Assembly: GCA_016187025.1 (NCBI GenBank)
Contig: JACPKM010000001.1
Location: 43,188-107,187 of the forward strand
Origin: Candidatus Daviesbacteria bacterium
GTDB lineage: Bacteria > Patescibacteriota > Microgenomatia > Daviesbacterales > UBA10151
Length of the DNA: 64,000 nucleotides
Reading direction: 5' to 3'
Shown here: positions 4,299-48,030 of the stretch, piece after piece
How the letters are laid out: the number at the start of each line of letters is the position of its first letter
Numbering within the stretch: position 1 is the stretch's first letter
Position numbers and translations under genes: made by a program
Notes under the pieces: generated by a model
Seen by the model: the letters and a program-made list of their open reading frames with translations, nothing else
What the model was told of the DNA's origin: nothing
The model's database searches: none

Positions 4299-5030
4299 TT
4301 ATTTAAGTAAAGAGTCAATTTGGGTTTTCATCTGTTCAAAAGGAACAGCACCGGCAACATCTACAGTTTTACCAGTTTTTGTATCAAGTAAAATATTTCC
4401 TGGCGTGCCATTTACCCCAGCTTTTGATCCAGAGGCAATATCTTTGTCTATATAGGCTTTATATTTTCCGGAATCAAGACAAGACTTAAATTTAGCTTGG
4501 TCAAGGCCAAGTTTTGTTGATGCAATAGTTGCTAAATCTGCAATTTCTGGAGTTACTTCTGGCTCATAAATTGCATCAGCCATCTTCCAGAAAGCCTCTA
4601 TACCACCTAACTCTGTTGCGCATTCTGAAGCTTCGGCATATTTTCTGGCTTTAGGGTGAATCTGTTCCAGAGGAAAATGCCTATAAACCCAGGCCACTTG
4701 GCCTTTATACTCATCAACTATTTGTTTGGCAGTTGGATGAAATCTTTTACAAAAAGGACATTCTAAATCTGAGTATTCAACAAGTAAAATTCTAGCATTT
4801 TTATTGCCTTGAATATGGTCATTATCTCTTAAAGATTCTAGCTCTGTTTTTTCGGGCTGGGCTGGAGCATTATCAGCAGCTTGGTCAGCTACTTGCTTGG
4901 TTCCACCTGCCCCAACAGGTTGTCCAACTTTAATTATCCCACCATGCAGTAAAATTGCAATTGAAATTACAAAAGAACCTAAAAGGATGGCAACAGGAAG
5001 AGTTAGGATGGAGTTTTTATCAGAATCCAT
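4299..5030 (-). CDS. DsbA-family thiol:disulfide oxidoreductase, membrane-anchored
   Basis: N-terminal TM segment; thioredoxin fold with a CPFC active site (SDLECPFCKRFHP). Confidence 0.65.
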   Translation of the reverse strand: MDSDKNSILTLPVAILLGSFVISIAILLHGGIIKVGQPVGAGGTKQVADQAADNAPAQPEKTELESLRDNDHIQGNKNARILLVEYSDLECPFCKRFHPTAKQIVDEYKGQVAWVYRHFPLEQIHPKARKYAEASECATELGGIEAFWKMADAIYEPEVTPEIADLATIASTKLGLDQAKFKSCLDSGKYKAYIDKDIASGSKAGVNGTPGNILLDTKTGKTVDVAGAVPFEQMKTQIDSLLK

Positions 5031-5070
5031 AAAATTAAGTCTAGCTTTTTGACTGTTTAGTTGTCAACCC

Positions 5071-5649
5071 CTAGTTATACTGACACTGAGCTTTTTCTGG
5101 CCCCTTTTCTAATACCAAATCAAGAGCTTCAATTCCTTTTTTAAACATTGCTTTAACTGTCTGGTGTTCTTTCTGTAAAAAGTTTTCCAGAACAAATTTT
5201 TCAGCTTCAAAAGAGATCCTTTTGTGTTCTCCGGCAAAGGCTTTTTCATTTCCTATCCCAAACCTTAAACGTATAAACTTATCAGTCCCCAGCTTTCCGA
5301 TCACTGATTCAACTCCATGATGCCCCCCTGCACCGCCACCAAAGCGCACTTTAATTTTTCCCAGTAGCAAATCCAGATCATCATGGACAACAATAACGTT
5401 TTCAGCCGGGACTTTAAAAAAGTTAGCAAGTGATGAAACAGCTATACCAGAGTTATTCATAAAAGTAAGCGGACGAGCCAAAATCAAGTCCTGATTTAAC
5501 TTGATAATTTCCGATTTAAATTTATTGTCAGTACTCCACTCCCCCAGGTCCTTTTTTTTCTTATATGCATCTAAAAAATCAAATCCTAAATTATGCCTGG
5601 TATAAATATATTTATCCTCAGGATTACCTAAACCAACAACTAGTTTCAT
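5071..5649 (-). CDS. pth: peptidyl-tRNA hydrolase
   Basis: MKLVVGLGNPEDKYIYTRHNLGF...; length and motifs are typical of Pth. Confidence 0.85.
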   Translation of the reverse strand: MKLVVGLGNPEDKYIYTRHNLGFDFLDAYKKKKDLGEWSTDNKFKSEIIKLNQDLILARPLTFMNNSGIAVSSLANFFKVPAENVIVVHDDLDLLLGKIKVRFGGGAGGHHGVESVIGKLGTDKFIRLRFGIGNEKAFAGEHKRISFEAEKFVLENFLQKEHQTVKAMFKKGIEALDLVLEKGPEKAQCQYN

Positions 5650-5653
5650 ATTT

Positions 5654-6937
5654 TTAAAATAATCCTATTTGCGTTGTTTCCTTAGCTTGCTCTTCTTTTT
5701 CTTCTGACCATATCTTTACTACCCCGTACACTCCATCATACCCTGGATCTATCACCAGATCACCTTTTCTTACCTTGTCTATCCCCTCAGCTATCTTTGA
5801 CCCGGAGATTTTTGCCACCTCTGATATATCAACCTTGGTCAAAACCTTTATCTCCCCACCTAAAGCCATTACCAATTTTTTGTATTCATTTAATACCTTT
5901 TGGCTTGTCGGCATAGATCCAAACGCTTCAGCTATAATCTGCAATAGGGGCACTAACATCTTATAACCAGGCCTTTGTAAAGCCTCACTTTTGATCATAC
6001 CCTCTTCGTTTCTTACTTTTAACTCCGAGCTCGATCGTGAAGCGAGCGTCTCCACCCTCTCCATCACCCCGACCGTTAAACCTCGCCCGCATTTTGGACA
6101 GATGGTGCTATTTTGCCTGGTCTGCTCTGGCGAGTACTTAACATTACAGTTTCTATGGCCGGTATAGTGATATTTACCCTCCTCAGGATAAAACTCAATG
6201 GTCCCTACCAGATCTTGCGATTTAACCGCTTCCAGTAATCCTTGGAAACCCTCTTGTAAAGATCTGTTTACCACTGTTGATTCCCTGCCTATGTTAGGCA
6301 AGGAGTGTGCATCTGAACAAGATATTATTGATCTAGTGTCTAACTCCCCTACTCTCCAATTCATCGCCGGGTCAGAAGATAAACCCGTCTCAATGGCATA
6401 TACCTTGTCAGTTAAATCCTCAAAGCAATCTTTCAAACTATCATAACCTGACTCAGAGCCAAACACCCCAAACCAGGGGGTCCAGATATGGGCTGGGACA
6501 AAAAGGGCTTTCGATGACACCTCAAGCGCCATATATAGCAGATCTTTAGAGGGGATCCCCACAATTGGCCTACCATCAGATGCCAAAGTTGCCCTTTTGG
6601 TAAATAGCGCTTGCTGAAAACGGGTTGCGCAGTCTAAATCCGGCATGAACACTAAATTATGCACCCTTCTACCCTTACCCTTATGAGAATAGATTGAGGC
6701 TATCTCAACAGTTAGGACAAATTTAACAGGGGAGTTTTTAAAAGTTAAAAAACCAGAACCATCCTCTGTTAGCTGGCTTTTTAGCTCTGTTAACCAAAGA
6801 GGGTGTAAAAAATCTCCTGTACCCAAAAGGTTTATCCCTTTAAGATTTGCCCATTCTACCAAGTTAGGGATATTTAATTGTTGTGAACAAGCCCGGGAAA
6901 ATCGGGAGTGGATATGCAAATCTGCAACATATGCCAT
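5654..6937 (-). CDS. PHP-domain nuclease, endonuclease Q (EndoQ)-like
   Basis: N-terminal PHP motif ADLHIHSRFSRA and ...PAHIWTPW...; a central Zn-ribbon CPKCGRG; about 427 aa with domain order as in archaeal EndoQ. Confidence 0.5.
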   Translation of the reverse strand: MAYVADLHIHSRFSRACSQQLNIPNLVEWANLKGINLLGTGDFLHPLWLTELKSQLTEDGSGFLTFKNSPVKFVLTVEIASIYSHKGKGRRVHNLVFMPDLDCATRFQQALFTKRATLASDGRPIVGIPSKDLLYMALEVSSKALFVPAHIWTPWFGVFGSESGYDSLKDCFEDLTDKVYAIETGLSSDPAMNWRVGELDTRSIISCSDAHSLPNIGRESTVVNRSLQEGFQGLLEAVKSQDLVGTIEFYPEEGKYHYTGHRNCNVKYSPEQTRQNSTICPKCGRGLTVGVMERVETLASRSSSELKVRNEEGMIKSEALQRPGYKMLVPLLQIIAEAFGSMPTSQKVLNEYKKLVMALGGEIKVLTKVDISEVAKISGSKIAEGIDKVRKGDLVIDPGYDGVYGVVKIWSEEKEEQAKETTQIGLF

Positions 6938-6983
6938 ATTGGGATTTTACCATACATTATCCTTGTTAACTGCATCAACATTT

Positions 6984-7003
6984 TATTAAACGATCGTTTA
7001 ATA
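6984..7003. promoter_or_regulatory. 20-bp perfect palindrome TATTAAACGATCGTTTAATA (putative operator)
   Basis: Perfect inverted repeat in the EndoQ-like upstream region, immediately 3' of the PaaX-like gene. A half-site copy, TTAAACGATCGTT, lies at 7513-7525 upstream of the PaaX-like gene start. Confidence 0.4.
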
Positions 7004-7009
7004 ATCTGA

Positions 7010-7528
7010 TTATTTACCAGTACTGGTTGACTCTATTACCAAAACCCAATCCTCTATTACCAACTCTTTAACCAGTTTTCTTAAAACTATGGTCAAAGGT
7101 TTTTTACTGGCCCAGACACTCTTTTGCCAAGGCTTAAAACCCCAATCTTTTAATCTCCTTCTTAAGGTATTCCTGGCCCTTTTATGAGTTTCTGGAACAT
7201 CAAATATTACCAGCCTCCAGACTCCATCCCACTCTATCTGATCATCCGGCTTATTTTTAAGCAACCAATCCCTCCCCGCCTCTGTTAACTTCAAAATAAT
7301 CTTTTCCTCATCTTTTTGTCTCTCTATAAAACCATGTTCCCGGAGTCTTTTAAGAGCTTGAGCTAAAGCAGATTTGTTAAGTTCAGGAGCACCGTAGTGA
7401 TATCTATAGTAGTGGGCCCTAAAATCATCTATTCTGACTACTCCGTCAACGCTCTTTTCTAAAACCAGTAAAATTGCATCCCTTAACTTTTTCTTAACCA
7501 TTATCAAAACATTAAACGATCGTTGCAA
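7010..7528 (-). CDS. PaaX-family-like transcriptional regulator (wHTH N-terminus plus Cas2-like C-terminal domain)
   Basis: C-terminus WRLVIFDVPE...RRRLKDWGFKPWQKSVW matches the PaaX C-domain pattern. The N-terminal part is wHTH-like. The likely true start is the internal ATG at 7501 (MVKKKL...). Confidence 0.5.
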   Translation of the reverse strand: MQRSFNVLIMVKKKLRDAILLVLEKSVDGVVRIDDFRAHYYRYHYGAPELNKSALAQALKRLREHGFIERQKDEEKIILKLTEAGRDWLLKNKPDDQIEWDGVWRLVIFDVPETHKRARNTLRRRLKDWGFKPWQKSVWASKKPLTIVLRKLVKELVIEDWVLVIESTSTGK

Positions 7529-7541
7529 GTTTTGTCAATAC

Positions 7542-8153
7542 TTAGGGATAGTAAAATCCGATATGTCCATCCTCCCCAATATGAAATCCTAGTCTAACCT
7601 TTGGTTCATACTTGGGATGTTTCTCCAAACCACATAAAGGAGAGAGTAAACCGTCATTTCCCCATAGACTTAAAACAGCCAGCCCTTCTTTAATTTCTTT
7701 GTAAACACCGGACGATGGCTTAGGAATACTACATTCATTACAAAAGCCCAGCATACGATCTACTCTCACTGCTTCTGACCTGCATGGCGTTAATCCCCCG
7801 CTGCATTCGGAATCATAAGAAATATCCCCCTGTGGGGATACTAAAGCAATCCAACCCGGCGGCGTAATATTTTGTATATTTTCAACCTGTCCTGCTCGCC
7901 AGCAATATATTCCACCACTTGTTCTATGAAAGTGTTGGGCTTGGATAAGTGCATGAACTTGGTAAACCAAAGGATTAAAACCTACCTCACAATCTCTACA
8001 CCAACCATCTGTCCTTCTTATAGGCGATATAAAAGTGGGGCTTTCTAATCTTGCTCTTATCGGGGCCCTTGAAAGACTTGAAGATTCTTTAGGATCAAGG
8101 AGGGCTAGCTGTTTAAAAAAAATTGGAGGCTTCTCTTGATCTAACAAATTCAT
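7542..8153 (-). CDS. hypothetical Cys-rich protein, co-transcribed downstream of the DNA ligase
   Basis: 203 aa with several Cys pairs (CRDCE, CNECS, CRSE, CGLE). No family recognised. Overlaps the ligase stop by 4 nt. Confidence 0.3.
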   Translation of the reverse strand: MNLLDQEKPPIFFKQLALLDPKESSSLSRAPIRARLESPTFISPIRRTDGWCRDCEVGFNPLVYQVHALIQAQHFHRTSGGIYCWRAGQVENIQNITPPGWIALVSPQGDISYDSECSGGLTPCRSEAVRVDRMLGFCNECSIPKPSSGVYKEIKEGLAVLSLWGNDGLLSPLCGLEKHPKYEPKVRLGFHIGEDGHIGFYYP

Positions 8154-9925
8154 TTTTTGTATTGCAGATGATACATCTCGACTAACTCTTTAACAGTAGT
8201 TACATCCTCAGGTTGTTTGTCAGCTTCACGGAATTTAACTAACCTGGGAAATCTTAAGGCGTATCCAGGCCCTGAGCCTATTTTGCCAGCTGTATGGACC
8301 GGAGATTTGGTAATTTCATCTGCTAACACCTCTATCACTATTTTCGGTTCCACCCAGACGCTAGGAGTAATTAATGAATTTACCCGTGCTGGTTTCCTTT
8401 GAACTTTGAACTTTGAACTTTGAACTTTGATTTCTCTCCATTCCTCATCGGTTAATCCTGTGCCAATTCTGGAAACTGTCACAAATTCATCTTTGTCTTT
8501 ATCATAAACTCCAACCAGTAATGCCCCTGCCCCAAACTCTGCCCTTTTCCCCCTGCCAAAAATATAACCTAAAATTACGCAATCAATAGTATCCTTAAGC
8601 TCACCTGCCGAGTGCCTCTTTAATTTCACCCAGTTAAAATTCCTGGCTCCTGCCTCATATTTTGAATCAGGTCTTTTGACAACCACTCCTTCCAAACCTT
8701 TGGTTAAGGCATCATTAAAAAGCTCATTTAACCTTTCTTCGTTGTCTACCACCTCTCCGGGCTGCGGAATTAATATTTCATCCCCCTGCAAAACCTTTTT
8801 TAGCTGTTCCATTCTTTCAATTAGCTCCAAGTCCATTAAGGGTTTTCCATCTAGATACATCACATCAAACACAAAAGCCTTTAAAGGCAGGCTCTTTGCC
8901 ATTTCTTCTATGCCATACTTTCTTCTTCTTTTTGTGGTTTCCTGAAAAGGTAAAAATTCTTCTGATTGGGGGTTAAAAGCTAAGGCTTCTGAGTCTAAAA
9001 TGGCTGTTTTGGCTTTAATCTGTTTAATTGTTCCTTCCACAATCTCCGGAAACATGGGAGTAGTTTCCTCTAAGTTTCTGGAAAAAAGCCTGACATTATT
9101 ACCGTCTTTGTGAATTTGCACTCGGAATCCATCATATTTATACTGAACATGAGCATTACCTTCAAACTTTTGCAGGACAGTCTTGGCATCCGGTAATCTT
9201 TCTGCCAACTGGGAGCGGATCGGCCGGCCCACTGTCACATCAAGCTTTTGCACCGCCTCCAACCCCCCACTCCATAAGGTTTCGCCGATCAATCCTAGAT
9301 CAGAAACTTTATTATATGCTCCTTCTAAAAGTTTCCTTTTGGACCTGTCTCCCAGTTTTAGTTTGGCAAAAGCATCCAGAACCGTGGGGTCCCCTATTCC
9401 AAGCCTCGAAACACCAAGTGGAATTCTTACTAAATGCTTTGCAGATATTGGATCAACTTTTTTTAATATATCTGCTAAGGTAGCGACCTTTTTTTCTACT
9501 GTTCCTTCACCGGAAGTTTTAGCAATCCCTGCCAAAGTTTCAAAAATTTCTTTTGTTTCCAATTTAAAAGTTTTAATTTTAAATTTTAAATTCAGCTGTT
9601 GGGCCACTAAACCCATATCTCCTAATTTGCCTAAAAGATTTAATACTTCCTCCTTATCAGCTTTATAAGCTCGACCAACAGCTGCTGCTACCAATTTTTC
9701 ACTCATCCCCATCTCAACAGGCTCGTAAAACGGGGCTACTCTTCCCTGAAGCAGATAACTCACCTTTGCTACCTCATGTTTTTCTACCTTAGAAAAAAGT
9801 TCTGAGAGGATGTCTATCAGGGAGAGTCTCGAGGAAGTAGTTTCTAACCTTTCAAAATAGTCCGCTAACTGCTTAAAAATCATCTCTTTTGGATTGTAGA
9901 TTAAACAAATTAATTTGACAAGCAA
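8150..9925 (-). CDS. lig: ATP-dependent DNA ligase (three-domain Lig1/archaeal type)
   Basis: Adenylation motif I KYDGFRVQIHK; 591 aa with DBD, NTase and OB domain order. Confidence 0.85.
   Translation of the reverse strand: MLVKLICLIYNPKEMIFKQLADYFERLETTSSRLSLIDILSELFSKVEKHEVAKVSYLLQGRVAPFYEPVEMGMSEKLVAAAVGRAYKADKEEVLNLLGKLGDMGLVAQQLNLKFKIKTFKLETKEIFETLAGIAKTSGEGTVEKKVATLADILKKVDPISAKHLVRIPLGVSRLGIGDPTVLDAFAKLKLGDRSKRKLLEGAYNKVSDLGLIGETLWSGGLEAVQKLDVTVGRPIRSQLAERLPDAKTVLQKFEGNAHVQYKYDGFRVQIHKDGNNVRLFSRNLEETTPMFPEIVEGTIKQIKAKTAILDSEALAFNPQSEEFLPFQETTKRRRKYGIEEMAKSLPLKAFVFDVMYLDGKPLMDLELIERMEQLKKVLQGDEILIPQPGEVVDNEERLNELFNDALTKGLEGVVVKRPDSKYEAGARNFNWVKLKRHSAGELKDTIDCVILGYIFGRGKRAEFGAGALLVGVYDKDKDEFVTVSRIGTGLTDEEWREIKVQSSKFKVQRKPARVNSLITPSVWVEPKIVIEVLADEITKSPVHTAGKIGSGPGYALRFPRLVKFREADKQPEDVTTVKELVEMYHLQYKK
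8398..8430. repeat. heptanucleotide tandem repeat (TTTGAAC) x 4.7 inside the ligase CDS
   Basis: tttgaactttgaactttgaactttgaactttga; three heptamers make 21 nt, so the protein carries SSKFKVQ repeats. Confidence 0.8.
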
Positions 9926-16576: not shown

Positions 16577-16633
16577 TTGCAATTACTTTATAACAAAACC
16601 AGTAATATATTTAAACATGAAATCAAGGGTGAT

Positions 16634-16736
16634 AATGAACTACCCTGCAGCAGAGCTGCGAGGTATCGCAAGCGAAAGTTCTTGTTACCAAGTTGTAACC
16701 GCGCAGTAAACTGCTCGGTATTATGTAACAATAAAG
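16634..16736. ncRNA. conserved structured RNA-like element, copy 1 (unassigned family)
   Basis: AATGAACTACCCTGCAGC...GTAACAATAAAG. It shares its ends, order and helices with 37196-37361. Compensatory changes are seen (UCGC/GCGA versus UCGU/ACGA; GUUAC/GUAAC versus GUUAC/GUGAC). Confidence 0.35.
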
Positions 16737-31913: not shown

Positions 31914-32002
31914 AGTCTTTTTCCTAGTTTACCATATTACACATATTGAGCCGGTCGGCACAAAGTGCGTTAAACTAAGTTAGTAGAACACATCTGTTAT
32001 CT

Positions 32003-35858: not shown

Positions 35859-35950
35859 TTCGTTAACCTTCCCTTTTTGCTTCGCAAAAACGTAGAAGTA
35901 TGGTATTTAGTATAACGTATGCTGGGTATGATTCCTAATCTTAGCTAAAG

Positions 35951-36022
35951 TAGCAGGGATGGGGCTCGAACCCATAACCTCTTCGTTATGAATGAAGTGC
36001 TCCACCATTGAGCTACCCTGCC
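35951..36022 (-). tRNA. tRNA-Met (anticodon CAT), elongator-like
   Basis: Cloverleaf GGCAGGG-TA-GCTC...GAGC-A-CTTCA-TTCATAA-CGAAG-AGGTT-ATGGG-TTCGAGC-CCCAT-CCCTGCT-A; G1-U72, Y11:R24. Confidence 0.8.
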
Positions 36023-37038: not shown

Positions 37039-37195
37039 CACGGTTGTATTTTGTGCATATAAAGCATGCAGTTGGGCTACTATATAGCCCTTTTCGTTAG
37101 GTTCGAACGCCTTTCCTATTATTGGCGCACCAGCCTTCATGTTTTTAACAATTTTAATGTGAGGATGAGACTGTAAACCCAATTTTTTACCCTTT

Positions 37196-37361
37196 AATGA
37201 ACTACCCCGCAGCAAGTCTTCGACTCCGAGGCTCAGACTCGAGGAGCTGACGGGGTATCGTAAACGAAAGTTCTTGTTACACTATTTTGTGACCGCGCAG
37301 TAAGTCTGCGATCCTGAGTCCTCAGACCGAAGGACTGCTCGGTATTTATGTAACAATAAAG
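37196..37361. ncRNA. conserved structured RNA-like element, copy 2 (expanded helices)
   Basis: Same termini (AATGAACTACCC ... GTAACAATAAAG) and helix order as 16634-16736, with stem-loop insertions and compensatory substitutions. Confidence 0.35.
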
Positions 37362-39492: not shown

Positions 39493-39558
39493 TAAAAAAT
39501 TCTGCAATTAAATCAACGATTTAATTGGGTGTATTATGTCTTGCAGTCCCCGCAACAC
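39493..39558. repeat. 66-bp direct repeat, copy 1 (att-like)
   Basis: taaaaaattctgcaattaaatcaacgatttaattgggtgtattatgtcttgcagtccccgcaacaca; identical to 42058-42123. It contains a 10-bp hairpin CAATTAAATC/GATTTAATTG and the core CCCCGCAACAC shared with the tRNA(CAU) 3' end. Confidence 0.8.
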
Positions 39559-39612
39559 AGCTAGATTAGGTTGTTATAATAGCCTAATCTCTTAATTAGT
39601 AAATAGGCTAAA

Positions 39613-42057: not shown

Positions 42058-42123
42058 TAAAAAATTCTGCAATTAAATCAACGATTTAATTGGGTGTATT
42101 ATGTCTTGCAGTCCCCGCAACAC
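42058..42123. repeat. 66-bp direct repeat, copy 2 (att-like)
   Basis: Identical to 39493-39558. Confidence 0.8.
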
Positions 42124-42124
42124 A

Positions 42125-45273: not shown

Positions 45274-45438
45274 ATGTTGCCTTTAGATGTAATTAAAAAA
45301 TATTATCCTGATTTGTCAGATGAAGATTTGAAGAAAATACAAGTGTTTGTTTATCGATTGGGTTGTGGGATAATGCAACATTTTTATGGACAGGATTGGG
45401 ATAAGGATATTGAGGACTTGGATTTGGAAAACGAATAA
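45274..45438 (+). CDS. small protein (54 aa) with a strong SD
   Basis: AGGTGGTGA lies 7 nt upstream of the ATG; MLPLDVIKKYYPDLSDEDLKKIQVFVYRLGCGIMQHFYGQDWDKDIEDLDLENE. It is below the ORF-track length cutoff. Confidence 0.3.
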   Translation: MLPLDVIKKYYPDLSDEDLKKIQVFVYRLGCGIMQHFYGQDWDKDIEDLDLENE

Positions 45439-45558
45439 TGTTGTTCTGACAATCCAAACATGAGTTCGAATCTCGCTCGGTTTCTTGGCTATAGGGTTGA
45501 TTTCGAGGAGTTTTCCACAATTCCTTGAGGCTAAAAATTGTAGTTCGATAAAAATTAT

Positions 45559-45637
45559 TTGGTGAGCGGACCAGGACTCGAACCTGGAACCGGATGGATA
45601 TAAGCCATCTGCTCTGCCATTGAGCTATCCGCCCTTG
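45559..45637 (-). tRNA. tRNA-Ile (anticodon TAT/UAU) with an encoded CCA
   Basis: GGGCGGA-TA-GCTC-AATGGCA-GAGC-A-GATGG-CTTATAT-CCATC-CGGTT-CCAGG-TTCGAGT-CCTGG-TCCGCTC-A-CCA. Confidence 0.8.
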
Positions 45638-45654
45638 GTGCGCTGCTAATTGTA

Positions 45655-48030
45655 TCAAAGGCGAGCTCTTTGAACAATCTCTGCCTCAACCTTTACAGAG
45701 TCTCTTCCAAATTTTAGCCTTGATAGCTCTTTTATAGCCTGGGCAATTTGGAGATTTTTCATTTTATTTATCTTGTCAAAATCAGGCCTGGTATTAATAG
45801 AAAAGGGTACCACTGGCTCTCCGTTGACAATAGTTTTAACATAAGTATTAAATATTTCGACATTTACCAAATCTCTTTCAGAAAAAATAGGTGAAAACTC
45901 ATGTTGCAGGTAATTGGCATCTGTTACACCCACCCTAAAAGCAATTAAAGTACCAACATTTCCAAAAACAGCATTTTTTAGCTCTTCTCCAATCTGGCCA
46001 ATAAACTGGTTTGCAACAATTAGATTAAGTCTATACTTTCTTGCCTCAGACAATATTTCTGCAAATGTTTCTGTGGCAAAGTTTTGAAACTCATCTACAT
46101 ACAGGTAAAAATCCCGTCTTTGATCCATGGGCATATTTGCCCGGGACATTGCAGCTTGTAAAATCTTTGGCACCAAAATAAGTCCTAAGAAGTTGGAGTT
46201 TTCCTCCCCCATTTTTCCTTTTGATAAATTCATAATCAAAATTTTTCCATTATCCATGACATCTCTTAAATCAAATGAGGAATAACTTTGACCAATGATA
46301 TTTCTCATCATTTTGTTGGTAACAAAGCGGCCAAATTTAGAAACTGTGTAATCCAGCACCTCTGATTTGTGAAAGTCTGAGGTTTGGGCAATTTGATCAG
46401 TCCAGTAACGCCTAACAACAGCATCCTGTACTAAAGGCAAAAGCTCGCGGACAAACTCCGGATCTGTCATGATTCTCATTACCTCAACAAATGTACTGCC
46501 AGGCTTGGACATTACTGTTAGCATGGCATTTCTTACCCCATGCTCAAACCGGGGACCAATAATTCCGGTTTTGTTAGGATCAAAAAGCTTATACATTAAC
46601 CCGATGATTGAGGCTGTGACAAAATGTTTCTCCTGTTCAGATTTTGCCTCTAACATGTTTAAGCCAAAGGGTCTTTGCAAATCTGAAGGGTCAAAATAAA
46701 TTACATCTTCTGCTCTTTCAGGCGGTATTAGCTGAAGCAGGTCCTCTGCAGCGTCACCGTGTGGGTCAATAAAACAAACTCCTTTACCGGCATATATATC
46801 TTGCAAAAGCATAGCAAGCAACAGCTGAGTTTTTCCCATACCGGTCCGTCCTACGATATACATATGCCTTCTTCTGTCTTCTTCTCCGATAAAAATTGAC
46901 CTGGTTACCCCTCTAAAGATAGATTTGCCGATAAACATACCTGAAGATGGTATTTTTTCTGGAGCCGGAGCTTTTTTTGCATCTAGCCAGCTGATGTGAG
47001 GAGTTTCTATTGACTTATTAGGCAGATGAAAAATTGTTGATAGCTCATCGGGAGTTAAAACTGAAGGTGTAGCGTATTTTGGCTGATAACGATAAATTAA
47101 ATCAGTCATAAAGCCTTTCTCAGATGAAACTTTGGCTCCGGTAAACCCGTTATATGGACCATTAAACTGCTCAAAAGCGCTTTTCATATTGTTTAAATGA
47201 GCTTTAGCACTTTCTTTGGAGGTTGATGATGTAGCCAGTCTGATGGTTGCATAAAAACCACCTCTGGAAACCTTGGTTTCCACAGCCTCAAGCTGCTTGG
47301 CATCCGGAGGAGGTTTGGGATTATCAGGCTTTCCTGGATCTTTTTCTTTCTTTAACCAGCTTTTTCCTTTATCTTTCCATTTACTATCTGCCGGAGAAAT
47401 GATTAGTTGAACTGTTGCCCCTTCACTGGGCTGCATTTTTCCCAAGGCGGAAGTTAAAGCAGAGAGCGGATCGGTTGGTAAATCACGGTAAGTTTTTATA
47501 GGAAAATAGTCAGCGTTTTTAAGCTTAAATGATGAGTAGGCTGTAAAACCGTTTTCTGTAAAAATATTATACTCTGGTACTTCTTTGATCTCTGCATCCG
47601 GATAAGCTCCATTTATTTGTTTTTCCACCAAGTCTTGTAAGGATTTATGGCAGGAAATAAAAAACCTGATAGATTCATGTAAAGCAACTATTTCAAAAGA
47701 AAGATGAGGTTGAGGTTTAAAAGCCTCAAACAAACCACCTGATTTTCTCAAAGATGCAAGTGTTGCAAACATTTGTTCAGCTGCATCGATTTTAATCTCA
47801 TTACCTCTTGGAGCTTTAATTTGTAATAAAACAAACTGAAGAGAAGCTTTTTCCCTATCTTTGTATTTTATCCAGCCAACGAAATATTTCCTCAGGTAAA
47901 GAGTAAGTCCAATCAAAGCCATTACCAAAGCAACGATCCCCAAAACCGCCATTATCAAACTTAAGAAATCAGGACCTATTGCAGCTGTAGATCCACCTAC
48001 AGGTGCAACAACTTGTGGTGCAACCTCCAT
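45655..48030 (-). CDS. VirD4/TraD/TraG-like P-loop ATPase (type IV coupling-protein-like)
   Basis: N-terminal TM segment, Walker A IVGRTGMGKTQ, then DPHGD. 791 aa. Confidence 0.5.
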   Translation of the reverse strand: MEVAPQVVAPVGGSTAAIGPDFLSLIMAVLGIVALVMALIGLTLYLRKYFVGWIKYKDREKASLQFVLLQIKAPRGNEIKIDAAEQMFATLASLRKSGGLFEAFKPQPHLSFEIVALHESIRFFISCHKSLQDLVEKQINGAYPDAEIKEVPEYNIFTENGFTAYSSFKLKNADYFPIKTYRDLPTDPLSALTSALGKMQPSEGATVQLIISPADSKWKDKGKSWLKKEKDPGKPDNPKPPPDAKQLEAVETKVSRGGFYATIRLATSSTSKESAKAHLNNMKSAFEQFNGPYNGFTGAKVSSEKGFMTDLIYRYQPKYATPSVLTPDELSTIFHLPNKSIETPHISWLDAKKAPAPEKIPSSGMFIGKSIFRGVTRSIFIGEEDRRRHMYIVGRTGMGKTQLLLAMLLQDIYAGKGVCFIDPHGDAAEDLLQLIPPERAEDVIYFDPSDLQRPFGLNMLEAKSEQEKHFVTASIIGLMYKLFDPNKTGIIGPRFEHGVRNAMLTVMSKPGSTFVEVMRIMTDPEFVRELLPLVQDAVVRRYWTDQIAQTSDFHKSEVLDYTVSKFGRFVTNKMMRNIIGQSYSSFDLRDVMDNGKILIMNLSKGKMGEENSNFLGLILVPKILQAAMSRANMPMDQRRDFYLYVDEFQNFATETFAEILSEARKYRLNLIVANQFIGQIGEELKNAVFGNVGTLIAFRVGVTDANYLQHEFSPIFSERDLVNVEIFNTYVKTIVNGEPVVPFSINTRPDFDKINKMKNLQIAQAIKELSRLKFGRDSVKVEAEIVQRARL

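Follow-up and report, generated by a model that had tools for sequence, protein, structure and literature searches.

Relation of REG to described regulators

PaaX of Escherichia coli and Pseudomonas is a phenylacetyl-CoA-responsive, dimeric, autoregulating repressor of the paa catabolon, which has a long dyad operator and represses its own Px promoter by excluding RNA polymerase (PMC9493321). Here we describe a PaaX-like regulator gene (REG) together with a predicted upstream operator (UP) and a predicted downstream operator (DN) in a 64-kb window, i.e., the whole stretch of DNA that was analyzed (contig JACPKM010000001.1 of the Candidatus Daviesbacteria bacterium assembly GCA_016187025.1, positions 43,188–107,187); all genes around the site are on the minus strand. 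The comparisons below suggest that these elements probably form an autoregulatory unit that is self-contained and has a private pair of operators.

In its architecture the REG protein resembles PaaX: a winged helix at the N terminus precedes a Cas2-like PaaX_M domain. Its best structural matches are PaaX and a PaaX-like protein (8a39 and 3l09). REG differs from PaaX in lacking the C-terminal effector domain (163 aa versus ~305–316 aa), in having no paa genes nearby (its neighbors encode a DNA ligase (lig), an EndoQ-like nuclease, and peptidyl-tRNA hydrolase (Pth)), and in being a multi-copy gene bracketed by private operators. The predicted REG operator, ACAA-N8-ACGATCGT-N8-TTGT, also differs from the TGATTC-N27-GAATCA of PaaX (PMC9493321). 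Residues 90–162 matched Pfam PF20803 (PaaX_M; E = 3e-19, 69.3 bits versus a cut-off of 24), and the N-terminal winged helix gave weak HxlR, MarR, and PadR matches. The AlphaFold2 model of REG (mean predicted local distance difference test score of 82.7) had E. coli PaaX (8a39) as its top Foldseek match in the PDB, followed by the PaaX-like proteins 3l09 and 3kfw, over ~160 columns. PF20803 and these fold matches bear out the PaaX-like winged-helix assignment made in the preliminary description of this stretch. REG scored 32.4 bits against the PaaX equivalog TIGR02277, short of the cut-off of 264.55, and no match to the PaaX_C effector domain was found, the protein ending at residue 163 directly after the Cas2-like domain. 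Judged by its domain and fold matches, REG is a two-domain PaaX relative composed of a winged helix and a Cas2-like domain, and the latter probably mediates dimerization.

The resemblance to Cas2 lies in the ferredoxin-like β1-α1 region, which gave weak matches and has an invariant β1 Asp; residues D101, P103, and E104 are invariant, and the Cas2-like FD[IV]PE and QxSVW motifs are kept. Unlike Cas2, REG is fused to a winged helix and has no cas context. Its scores against the Cas2 models were below threshold (23.6 versus 23.8 for PF09827 and 23.2 versus 24.5 for TIGR01573), and the Cas2-like half alone had no match in the PDB by phmmer. No CRISPR-like repeat family was found in the window and the neighbors in 80 homologous loci are housekeeping genes, although cas1 was not explicitly searched; scans for defense and phage families returned only sub-threshold Cas2 and winged-helix matches, and no REG relatives were found in viral contigs. 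In public databases, family members P0024, P0030, and P0086 are labeled "CRISPR-associated endonuclease Cas2" or [quoted passage not shown]. Both labels are probably misleading for a two-domain family, and the Cas2 annotation of homologs is most likely a mislabel of proteins that are not CRISPR components.

At the 3' end of lacI, the O3 operator is a transcriptional roadblock that gives autoregulation (PMC3711431). REG shares with LacI a repressor operator at the 3' end of the repressor's own gene, O3 being also an auxiliary looping operator; LacI belongs to an unrelated protein family and O3 mainly serves the adjacent lac promoter, whereas the 3' operator of REG is conserved across a whole paralogous family whatever the neighbor, and a roadblock at REG is what we infer. 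In the lambda immunity region, cI likewise lies between its cognate operators OR and OL, one of which is over its own promoter. The lambda operators cooperate over a long range. That system differs in its phage context, multiple sub-sites, divergent lytic promoters, and operators 2.4 kb apart, whereas REG is a single ~0.5-kb gene in chromosomal housekeeping contexts. Regulators of the PadR, MarR, and HxlR types have a similar winged helix and palindromic operators over their own promoters, but use another dimerization module and normally have one promoter operator region with no conserved 3' copy. In these comparisons REG works like an autoregulated winged-helix repressor that is structurally nearest to PaaX without passing as PaaX, and it is not a Cas2. 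A self-repressing regulator is ordinary in principle; a conserved, paralog-specific operator pair at fixed positions is unusual. Our searches, limited to the literature library that was available, found no description of the two-domain REG family or its bracketing operators, and nothing relevant on PaaX together with Cas2 or on leaderless promoters in Patescibacteria.

A matched pair of sites at the two ends of REG

The center of DN (6993/6994) lies 16 nt past the TAA stop codon of REG and 56 nt before the EndoQ ATG at 6937 (Table 1). No perfect palindrome in the window is longer than DN, and the second longest measures 14 bp; the 20-bp palindrome reported earlier at 6984–7003 is present and is the inner part of this 22-bp element (6983–7004). 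The center of UP lies 18 nt before the REG ATG at 7501, with 9 of 13 arm positions symmetric, and UP includes TTAAACGATCGTT at 7512–7524, i.e., the half-site that had been noted upstream of this ATG but one position off (7513–7525). The two sites have the exact 14-mer ATTAAACGATCGTT in common on the plus strand (6985–6998 and 7511–7524). Allowing one mismatch, the 12-mer AAACGATCGTTT had two matches in the window, which are these two sites, versus 0.08 expected, and 1 of 100 shuffles reached two; a 16-mer with up to three mismatches had three matches versus 0.56 expected, the third being poor. Of 300 first-order Markov simulations of the window, 9 contained a perfect palindrome of at least 22 bp (p ∼0.03), so the palindrome length alone is only suggestive. 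The core CGATCG occurs just four times in the 64 kb and is therefore not a common word, contrary to a reservation raised in the preliminary description. Three CGRYCG or TGATCA sites in the window have at least 9 of 13 symmetric arm positions, namely DN (10), UP (9), and a CGGTCG at 31952 (9). The comparative data over 80 loci are decisive that the sites exceed chance.

For these comparisons, a homolog profile built from 33 sequences yielded 530 relatives in species-representative genomes, of which the best 79 were taken; the counts are over 80 homologous loci, with flanks aligned on the REG start and stop codons. These 79 loci belong to Daviesbacteria, Curtissbacteria, Blackburnbacteria, and other Microgenomates. 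The closest genome, a Candidatus Daviesbacteria metagenome-assembled genome (locus L001), carries a 90% identical REG. The family is multi-copy: several loci share one genome, which gives at least 3–4 paralogs per genome. Against 1.84 billion cluster representatives, the REG profile matched 3373 proteins at E ≤ 1e-10.

In 76 of the 80 loci, the 80 bp before the ATG contained a palindrome centered on CG[AG][TC]CG, which was exactly at −17/−18 in 41 of them, and a core was present at the REG 3' end in 58 loci, or 69 when a wider window was used. The background of 0.287 cores per kb would give ∼2 in either class. Strongly symmetric cores numbered 79 in ∼720 kb, and 75 were within 90 bp of an end of a REG gene (4 of 79 elsewhere). 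The arrangement of sites and gene noticed in this locus is thus conserved in relatives. The conserved part of the operator reaches 16 bp on either side of the core. Cognate UP and DN sites agreed at 11.6 of 18 flanking positions compared to 7.3 (standard deviation of 2.4) for non-cognate pairs, and the UP and DN 18-mers were identical in several loci, including L012, L039, L052, L041, and L046. The JACOYE paralogs, which are from one genome, have different arms (GTGTACGATCGTACA, TTGACACGATCGTCC, TTTGACGGCCGTCGT, and GATGCGATCGTACA), and the Curtissbacteria ortholog L004 carries the symmetric core change TGATCA in both copies. Because UP and DN match by gene, the arms differ between paralogs, and L004 changes both copies, these results point to one specific protein that recognizes both sites and co-evolves with them.

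UP lies in the promoter of REG. In the window, a perfect −35 hexamer and a candidate −10 are followed, after a further 7–9 nt, by the ATG at 7501, a start that had been considered probable and that is backed by the homologs, which begin with MVKKK or MIKKK. From this geometry the REG mRNA is likely to be leaderless or near-leaderless. Across the family, TTGACA occupies −19 to −14 relative to the core center; it is perfect in 32 of the 74 UP sites, and 44 of the 74 match it at five or more of the six positions. The UP consensus comprises TTGACA, variable but symmetric inner arms, and an A-CGATCG-T core, with a −10-like T+4...A+8 T+9 (TACAAT, TATAAT, TAGTAT, or TTTAAT; TGn-TATATT in one group) and the ATG at +18/+19 from the core center. 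The outer ACAA (−16 to −13) is mirrored by TTGT (+13 to +16), giving a dyad of ∼32 bp, and UP is asymmetric at −18 (82% T versus 47% at the mirror position). DN sites of the family carry a perfect TTGACA in only 4 of 69 cases, with 56% T at −18 versus 57% A at the mirror position, and the window DN is without a −35 (TAATCA, 3 of 6 matches). The features by which an autorepressor is judged, i.e., a dyad over its own −35 and −10 that is conserved in homologs and covaries with the paralog, are found at UP. At least 19 of the 66 ORFs (open reading frames) of the window have a TAnnnT hexamer 5–8 nt before the start, versus a Shine-Dalgarno-like motif in only 10 of 66, so leaderless transcription seems usual in this genome; the TGnTAnnnT-N6-ATG layout is common to the EndoQ promoter and many window genes.

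The position of DN follows the REG 3' end. Its center is 35–38 nt past the codon of the conserved E157, which ends the last β-strand, in 47 of 58 loci, and the standard deviation of the DN position is 4.7 nt relative to this codon versus 12.1 nt relative to the stop codon. This holds for C-terminal tails of 5–17 aa, the ORFs of long-tail paralogs reading into the palindrome. The genes 3' of DN are unrelated and often convergent, and in the largest synteny group a conserved 220-aa gene is tail-to-tail with REG. Paralog groups occupy conserved housekeeping neighborhoods (CarAB, ArgRS, MreB, DnaB, EF-P, and a GH1 glycosidase), and this synteny across species argues for their vertical inheritance. 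The unit of UP, REG, and DN is intact in orthologs L001, L004, L080, L082, and L083, with different genes inserted on either side (lig-hyp-REG-EndoQ in the window, where hyp is a hypothetical ORF; lig-REG-EndoQ in L083; lig-128aa-REG-87aa-EndoQ in L080; lig-105aa-REG-glyoxalase-EndoQ in L082; REG-(reverse ORF)-EndoQ with a 470-bp gap in L001; and EndoQ 135 bp away in L004). Since the layout recurs in most of the 80 related loci, the sites appear to serve self-control of the regulator and not EndoQ; on its position across the family, DN is very probably in the main the 3' operator of REG itself rather than an operator of the EndoQ promoter.

Two further candidates were considered. A conserved functional partner gene was rejected, the neighbors being diverse (GH1 glycosidase, EamA transporter, CarAB, ArgRS, MreB, DnaB, EF-P, and others). 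An ORF starting at a UP-like +19 after DN was also rejected: the ATG at 6973–6975 of the minus strand, 18 nt after the DN center, opens a short out-of-frame ORF that overlaps the EndoQ start, is not conserved in L001, L080, or L082, and is probably fortuitous.

Proposed self-control of REG and competing explanations

From the anatomy of the sites we infer that REG would bind a private dyad operator that occurs in two copies, at the two ends of its own gene. UP would cover the spacer and −10 of the TTGACA promoter, with the transcript predicted to start at or within 1–3 nt of the ATG; because of this overlap, bound REG would exclude RNA polymerase, and REG at UP would provide negative autoregulation at initiation, for which this layout is classical. 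DN, abutting or overlapping the last REG codons, would be a second operator for the same protein. It is quite probable that both palindromes are cognate REG sites and that UP mediates autorepression. DN-bound REG could form a roadblock where its own gene ends, i.e., a second negative feedback of the LacI-O3 type, and since the left edge of the operator lies next to or within the last codons, polymerase would be halted by the bound protein ahead of the stop codon. Complexes stalled by a roadblock end ∼10–20 nt short of it, and tmRNA handles non-stop mRNAs. DN could also loop cooperatively with UP over ∼526 bp. For the 3' operator, a role in a roadblock, in looping, or in both is probable; we tentatively consider the roadblock as its main role, and looping as the main role is rather doubtful. 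A roadblock would account for the fixed DN position better than looping, and it would insulate the unit from neighboring transcription. In the window, read-through would be stopped by the pair on both sides of REG (from lig-hyp into REG and from REG into EndoQ-pth), and EndoQ would keep its own constitutive-looking promoter.

Several observations weigh against this proposal. The recognition helix was not enriched in the mutual information between REG columns and operator arms, the top columns being scattered and the analysis confounded by phylogeny. The −10 assignment in the window (TTTAAT or TAATGT) is weak. The fixed DN position could also reflect tight packing of an ancestral arrangement, with no need for a roadblock, and the distances between UP and DN centers in family loci run continuously from 523 to 570 bp with no helical phasing, which leaves looping without positive support. 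In L031 (4086 and 4941; also in L042), a ∼42-nt direct repeat carrying the operator-promoter (…TAATAGTCCGATCGGACCAAACAATGT) flanks the gene upstream of REG, so that three cognate sites stand in a row, with the extra copy upstream of the neighboring gene; this third operator-promoter copy is identical, so that members of the family can acquire additional targets. The presence of several mainly self-regulating regulators in one small genome is puzzling and suggests further targets or effectors.

The preliminary description had placed DN in the promoter of the EndoQ-like gene and had read the unit as a two-target switch that directly represses or activates this gene. We regard such direct control as unlikely, even though DN precedes the EndoQ ATG by 56 bp on the same strand and nothing terminator-like lies between them, EndoQ is the next gene in three of seven orthologous loci (the window, L083, and L004), and a site near −56 could in principle affect contacts of the C-terminal domain of the polymerase α subunit or of an UP-element at EndoQ. 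In paralogs, DN follows the REG 3' end beside unrelated or convergent neighbors, and in L001, L080, and L082 other genes lie between DN and EndoQ. The EndoQ gene has its own promoter, with TGnTAAAAT-N6-ATG conserved in L001, L034, L043, L027, L004, L080, and L083, including genomes without REG or the palindrome there. Where REG is absent, lig abuts EndoQ (24–37 bp), the palindrome is absent, and TGGTAAAAT-N6-ATG is present; the EndoQ promoter then lies within the last part of the ligase gene, at its 3' end. These relatives also answer an earlier concern that the palindrome might be kept without the regulator, as they have neither. In the window, the EndoQ −10 begins 41 bp downstream of the DN center. 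Since this promoter is at 6944–6952 and its −10 is separated by more than 30 bp from the upstream palindrome, which overlaps no core element, a site in the EndoQ promoter is not supported. The earlier scheme of one operator at the regulator's own promoter and another at a neighbor thus stands for UP, which lies in the REG promoter, but not for DN, which tracks the REG 3' end. The palindrome beside EndoQ is no evidence for dedicated transcriptional control of a repair nuclease; an indirect effect on EndoQ-pth by blocking of read-through is possible and is the only route by which REG could affect EndoQ.

Other explanations were also considered. DN might be an auxiliary operator that loops with UP only, in the manner of lambda OR-OL or lac O1-O2, and tightens autorepression with no roadblock. 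The two cognate operators ∼523–570 bp apart, the 32-bp dyad with outer ACAA and TTGT that suggests higher-order binding, and the similar flanking of lambda cI by OR and OL agree with this view, but the spacing is without helical phasing, looping would not need DN held 35–38 nt from the domain end, and there is no sign of tetramerization; we consider it possible but rather doubtful. That the unit is or was a mobile or excisable cassette, with the direct repeats as recombination or cleavage sites of the Cas2-like domain, is very improbable. Paralog groups stay in conserved housekeeping synteny across species, no solo scar is present at the REG-less L050 c2/c3 junction or at lig-EndoQ junctions (solo sites, 4 of 79), no relatives were found in viral contigs, the Cas2 models are below threshold, no CRISPR array was found in the 64-kb window, and no recombinase is present. 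These points are set against 30–36-nt direct repeats that flank single genes (e.g., L012, L052, and L039), a multi-copy family (at least 3–4 per genome and 530 matches in genome representatives), the invariant D101, P103, and E104 with the FD[IV]PE and QxSVW motifs, and variable genes that adjoin the block on both sides. It is scarcely credible that the palindromes are RNA hairpins (a terminator or stability element) or restriction or methylation words instead of protein operators. DN is transcribed at the REG 3' end and can form a 9-bp hairpin, but this hairpin is weak (−7 kcal/mol, z = −1.4) and has no U-tract after it, the intrinsic-terminator scan found none, and no Rfam family was found in 5000–8300; moreover, there would be no need for an RNA element to match UP, which is untranscribed, but the two sites covary by paralog. 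The cores are restriction-type palindromes, CGATCG being a PvuI site that contains GATC, but CGATCG is rare in the window and not dispersed, and conservation continues for 16 bp to each side of the core.

Gene regulation in the candidate phyla radiation (Patescibacteria) is almost unexplored, with very few regulators there. The self-regulating REG unit proposed here offers a testable model of cis-elements and promoter (TTGACA, dyad, −10, and leaderless ATG) for a family that is expanded in Microgenomates, and a natural library of repressor-operator pairs, the differing sequences of which suggest orthogonality and could serve synthetic biology. An operator of a repressor at its own 3' end could be a general feedback or insulator device. 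With 530 loci and at least 3–4 paralogs per ∼0.8 Mb genome, one may speculate that the lineage-specific Microgenomates family consists of orthogonal self-contained units, each with its private operators at fixed positions (one in a leaderless promoter, one beside the last codons), for which dual feedback (at initiation and through a 3' roadblock that yields non-stop transcripts) is the ancestral design. In genomes where intrinsic terminators are scarce, the same pairs may double as protein-based terminators or insulators.

Gene neighborhood and other features of the window

The positions of the genes and elements are collected in Table 1. The assignment of the neighboring gene as EndoQ is sound on its sequence matches: residues 5–413 of the protein matched Pyrococcus furiosus EndoQ (5zb8; E = 1.3e-49 by phmmer, with 7k30 similar at ∼1e-49), and TIGR00375 was matched with E = 5e-51 (174 bits, below the equivalog cut-off of 326.6). 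The Cys-rich 203-aa ORF 5' of REG had no match in Pfam, NCBIfam, PADLOC, or PHROGs, and its homolog adjoins a REG paralog only in L035; the slot between lig and REG is variable, other relatives having different small ORFs or none.

Table 1. Genes and sequence elements at the REG locus (positions within the 64-kb window)
Feature	Position	Strand	Remarks
Peptidyl-tRNA hydrolase (Pth) gene	5071–5649	−	
EndoQ-like nuclease gene, 427 aa	5654–6937	−	Neighbor, no demonstrated target of REG
EndoQ extended −10, TGGTAAAAT	6944–6952	−	Followed by 6 nt, then ATG 6937
DN, perfect 22-bp palindrome TTATTAAACGATCGTTTAATAA	6983–7004		Core CGATCG 6991–6996
REG, 163 aa	7010–7501	−	Winged helix and Cas2-like PaaX_M; TAA stop 7010–7012
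UP, imperfect 32-bp dyad, center 7519/7520	7504–7535	−	Core CGATCG 7517–7522
Candidate REG −10, TTTAAT 7511–7516 or TAATGT 7509–7514	7509–7516	−	Right arm of UP
REG −35 hexamer TTGACA, perfect	7533–7538	−	3 nt after upstream ORF stop codon
Hypothetical ORF (hyp), 203 aa, Cys-rich, 5' of REG	7542–8153	−	
ATP-dependent DNA ligase (lig) gene	8150–9925	−	Pfam DNA_ligase_A_N/M/C

The genes for ligase, EndoQ, and Pth form a conserved array with a DNA-repair flavor (5071–9925 in the window; also in L027, L034, L043, L045, and L080). REG paralogs may themselves be neighbors: a REG-like fragment in L048 ends 15 bp before the next REG, and L002 has two REG paralogs 2.5 kb apart (4971–5471 and 7947–8465). 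Elsewhere in the window, a 67-nt perfect direct repeat (39493–39559 and 42058–42124, 2565 bp apart) flanks a few ORFs and may represent a recent duplication or an inserted element, and related ∼56-nt elements with 83–90% identity occur 20.6 kb apart at 16633–16688 and 37195–37280. A tRNA-Ile gene (anticodon TAT; 45560–45634, minus strand) coincides with the listed ORF at 45293–45658, and a tRNA-Met gene is located at 35950–36022.

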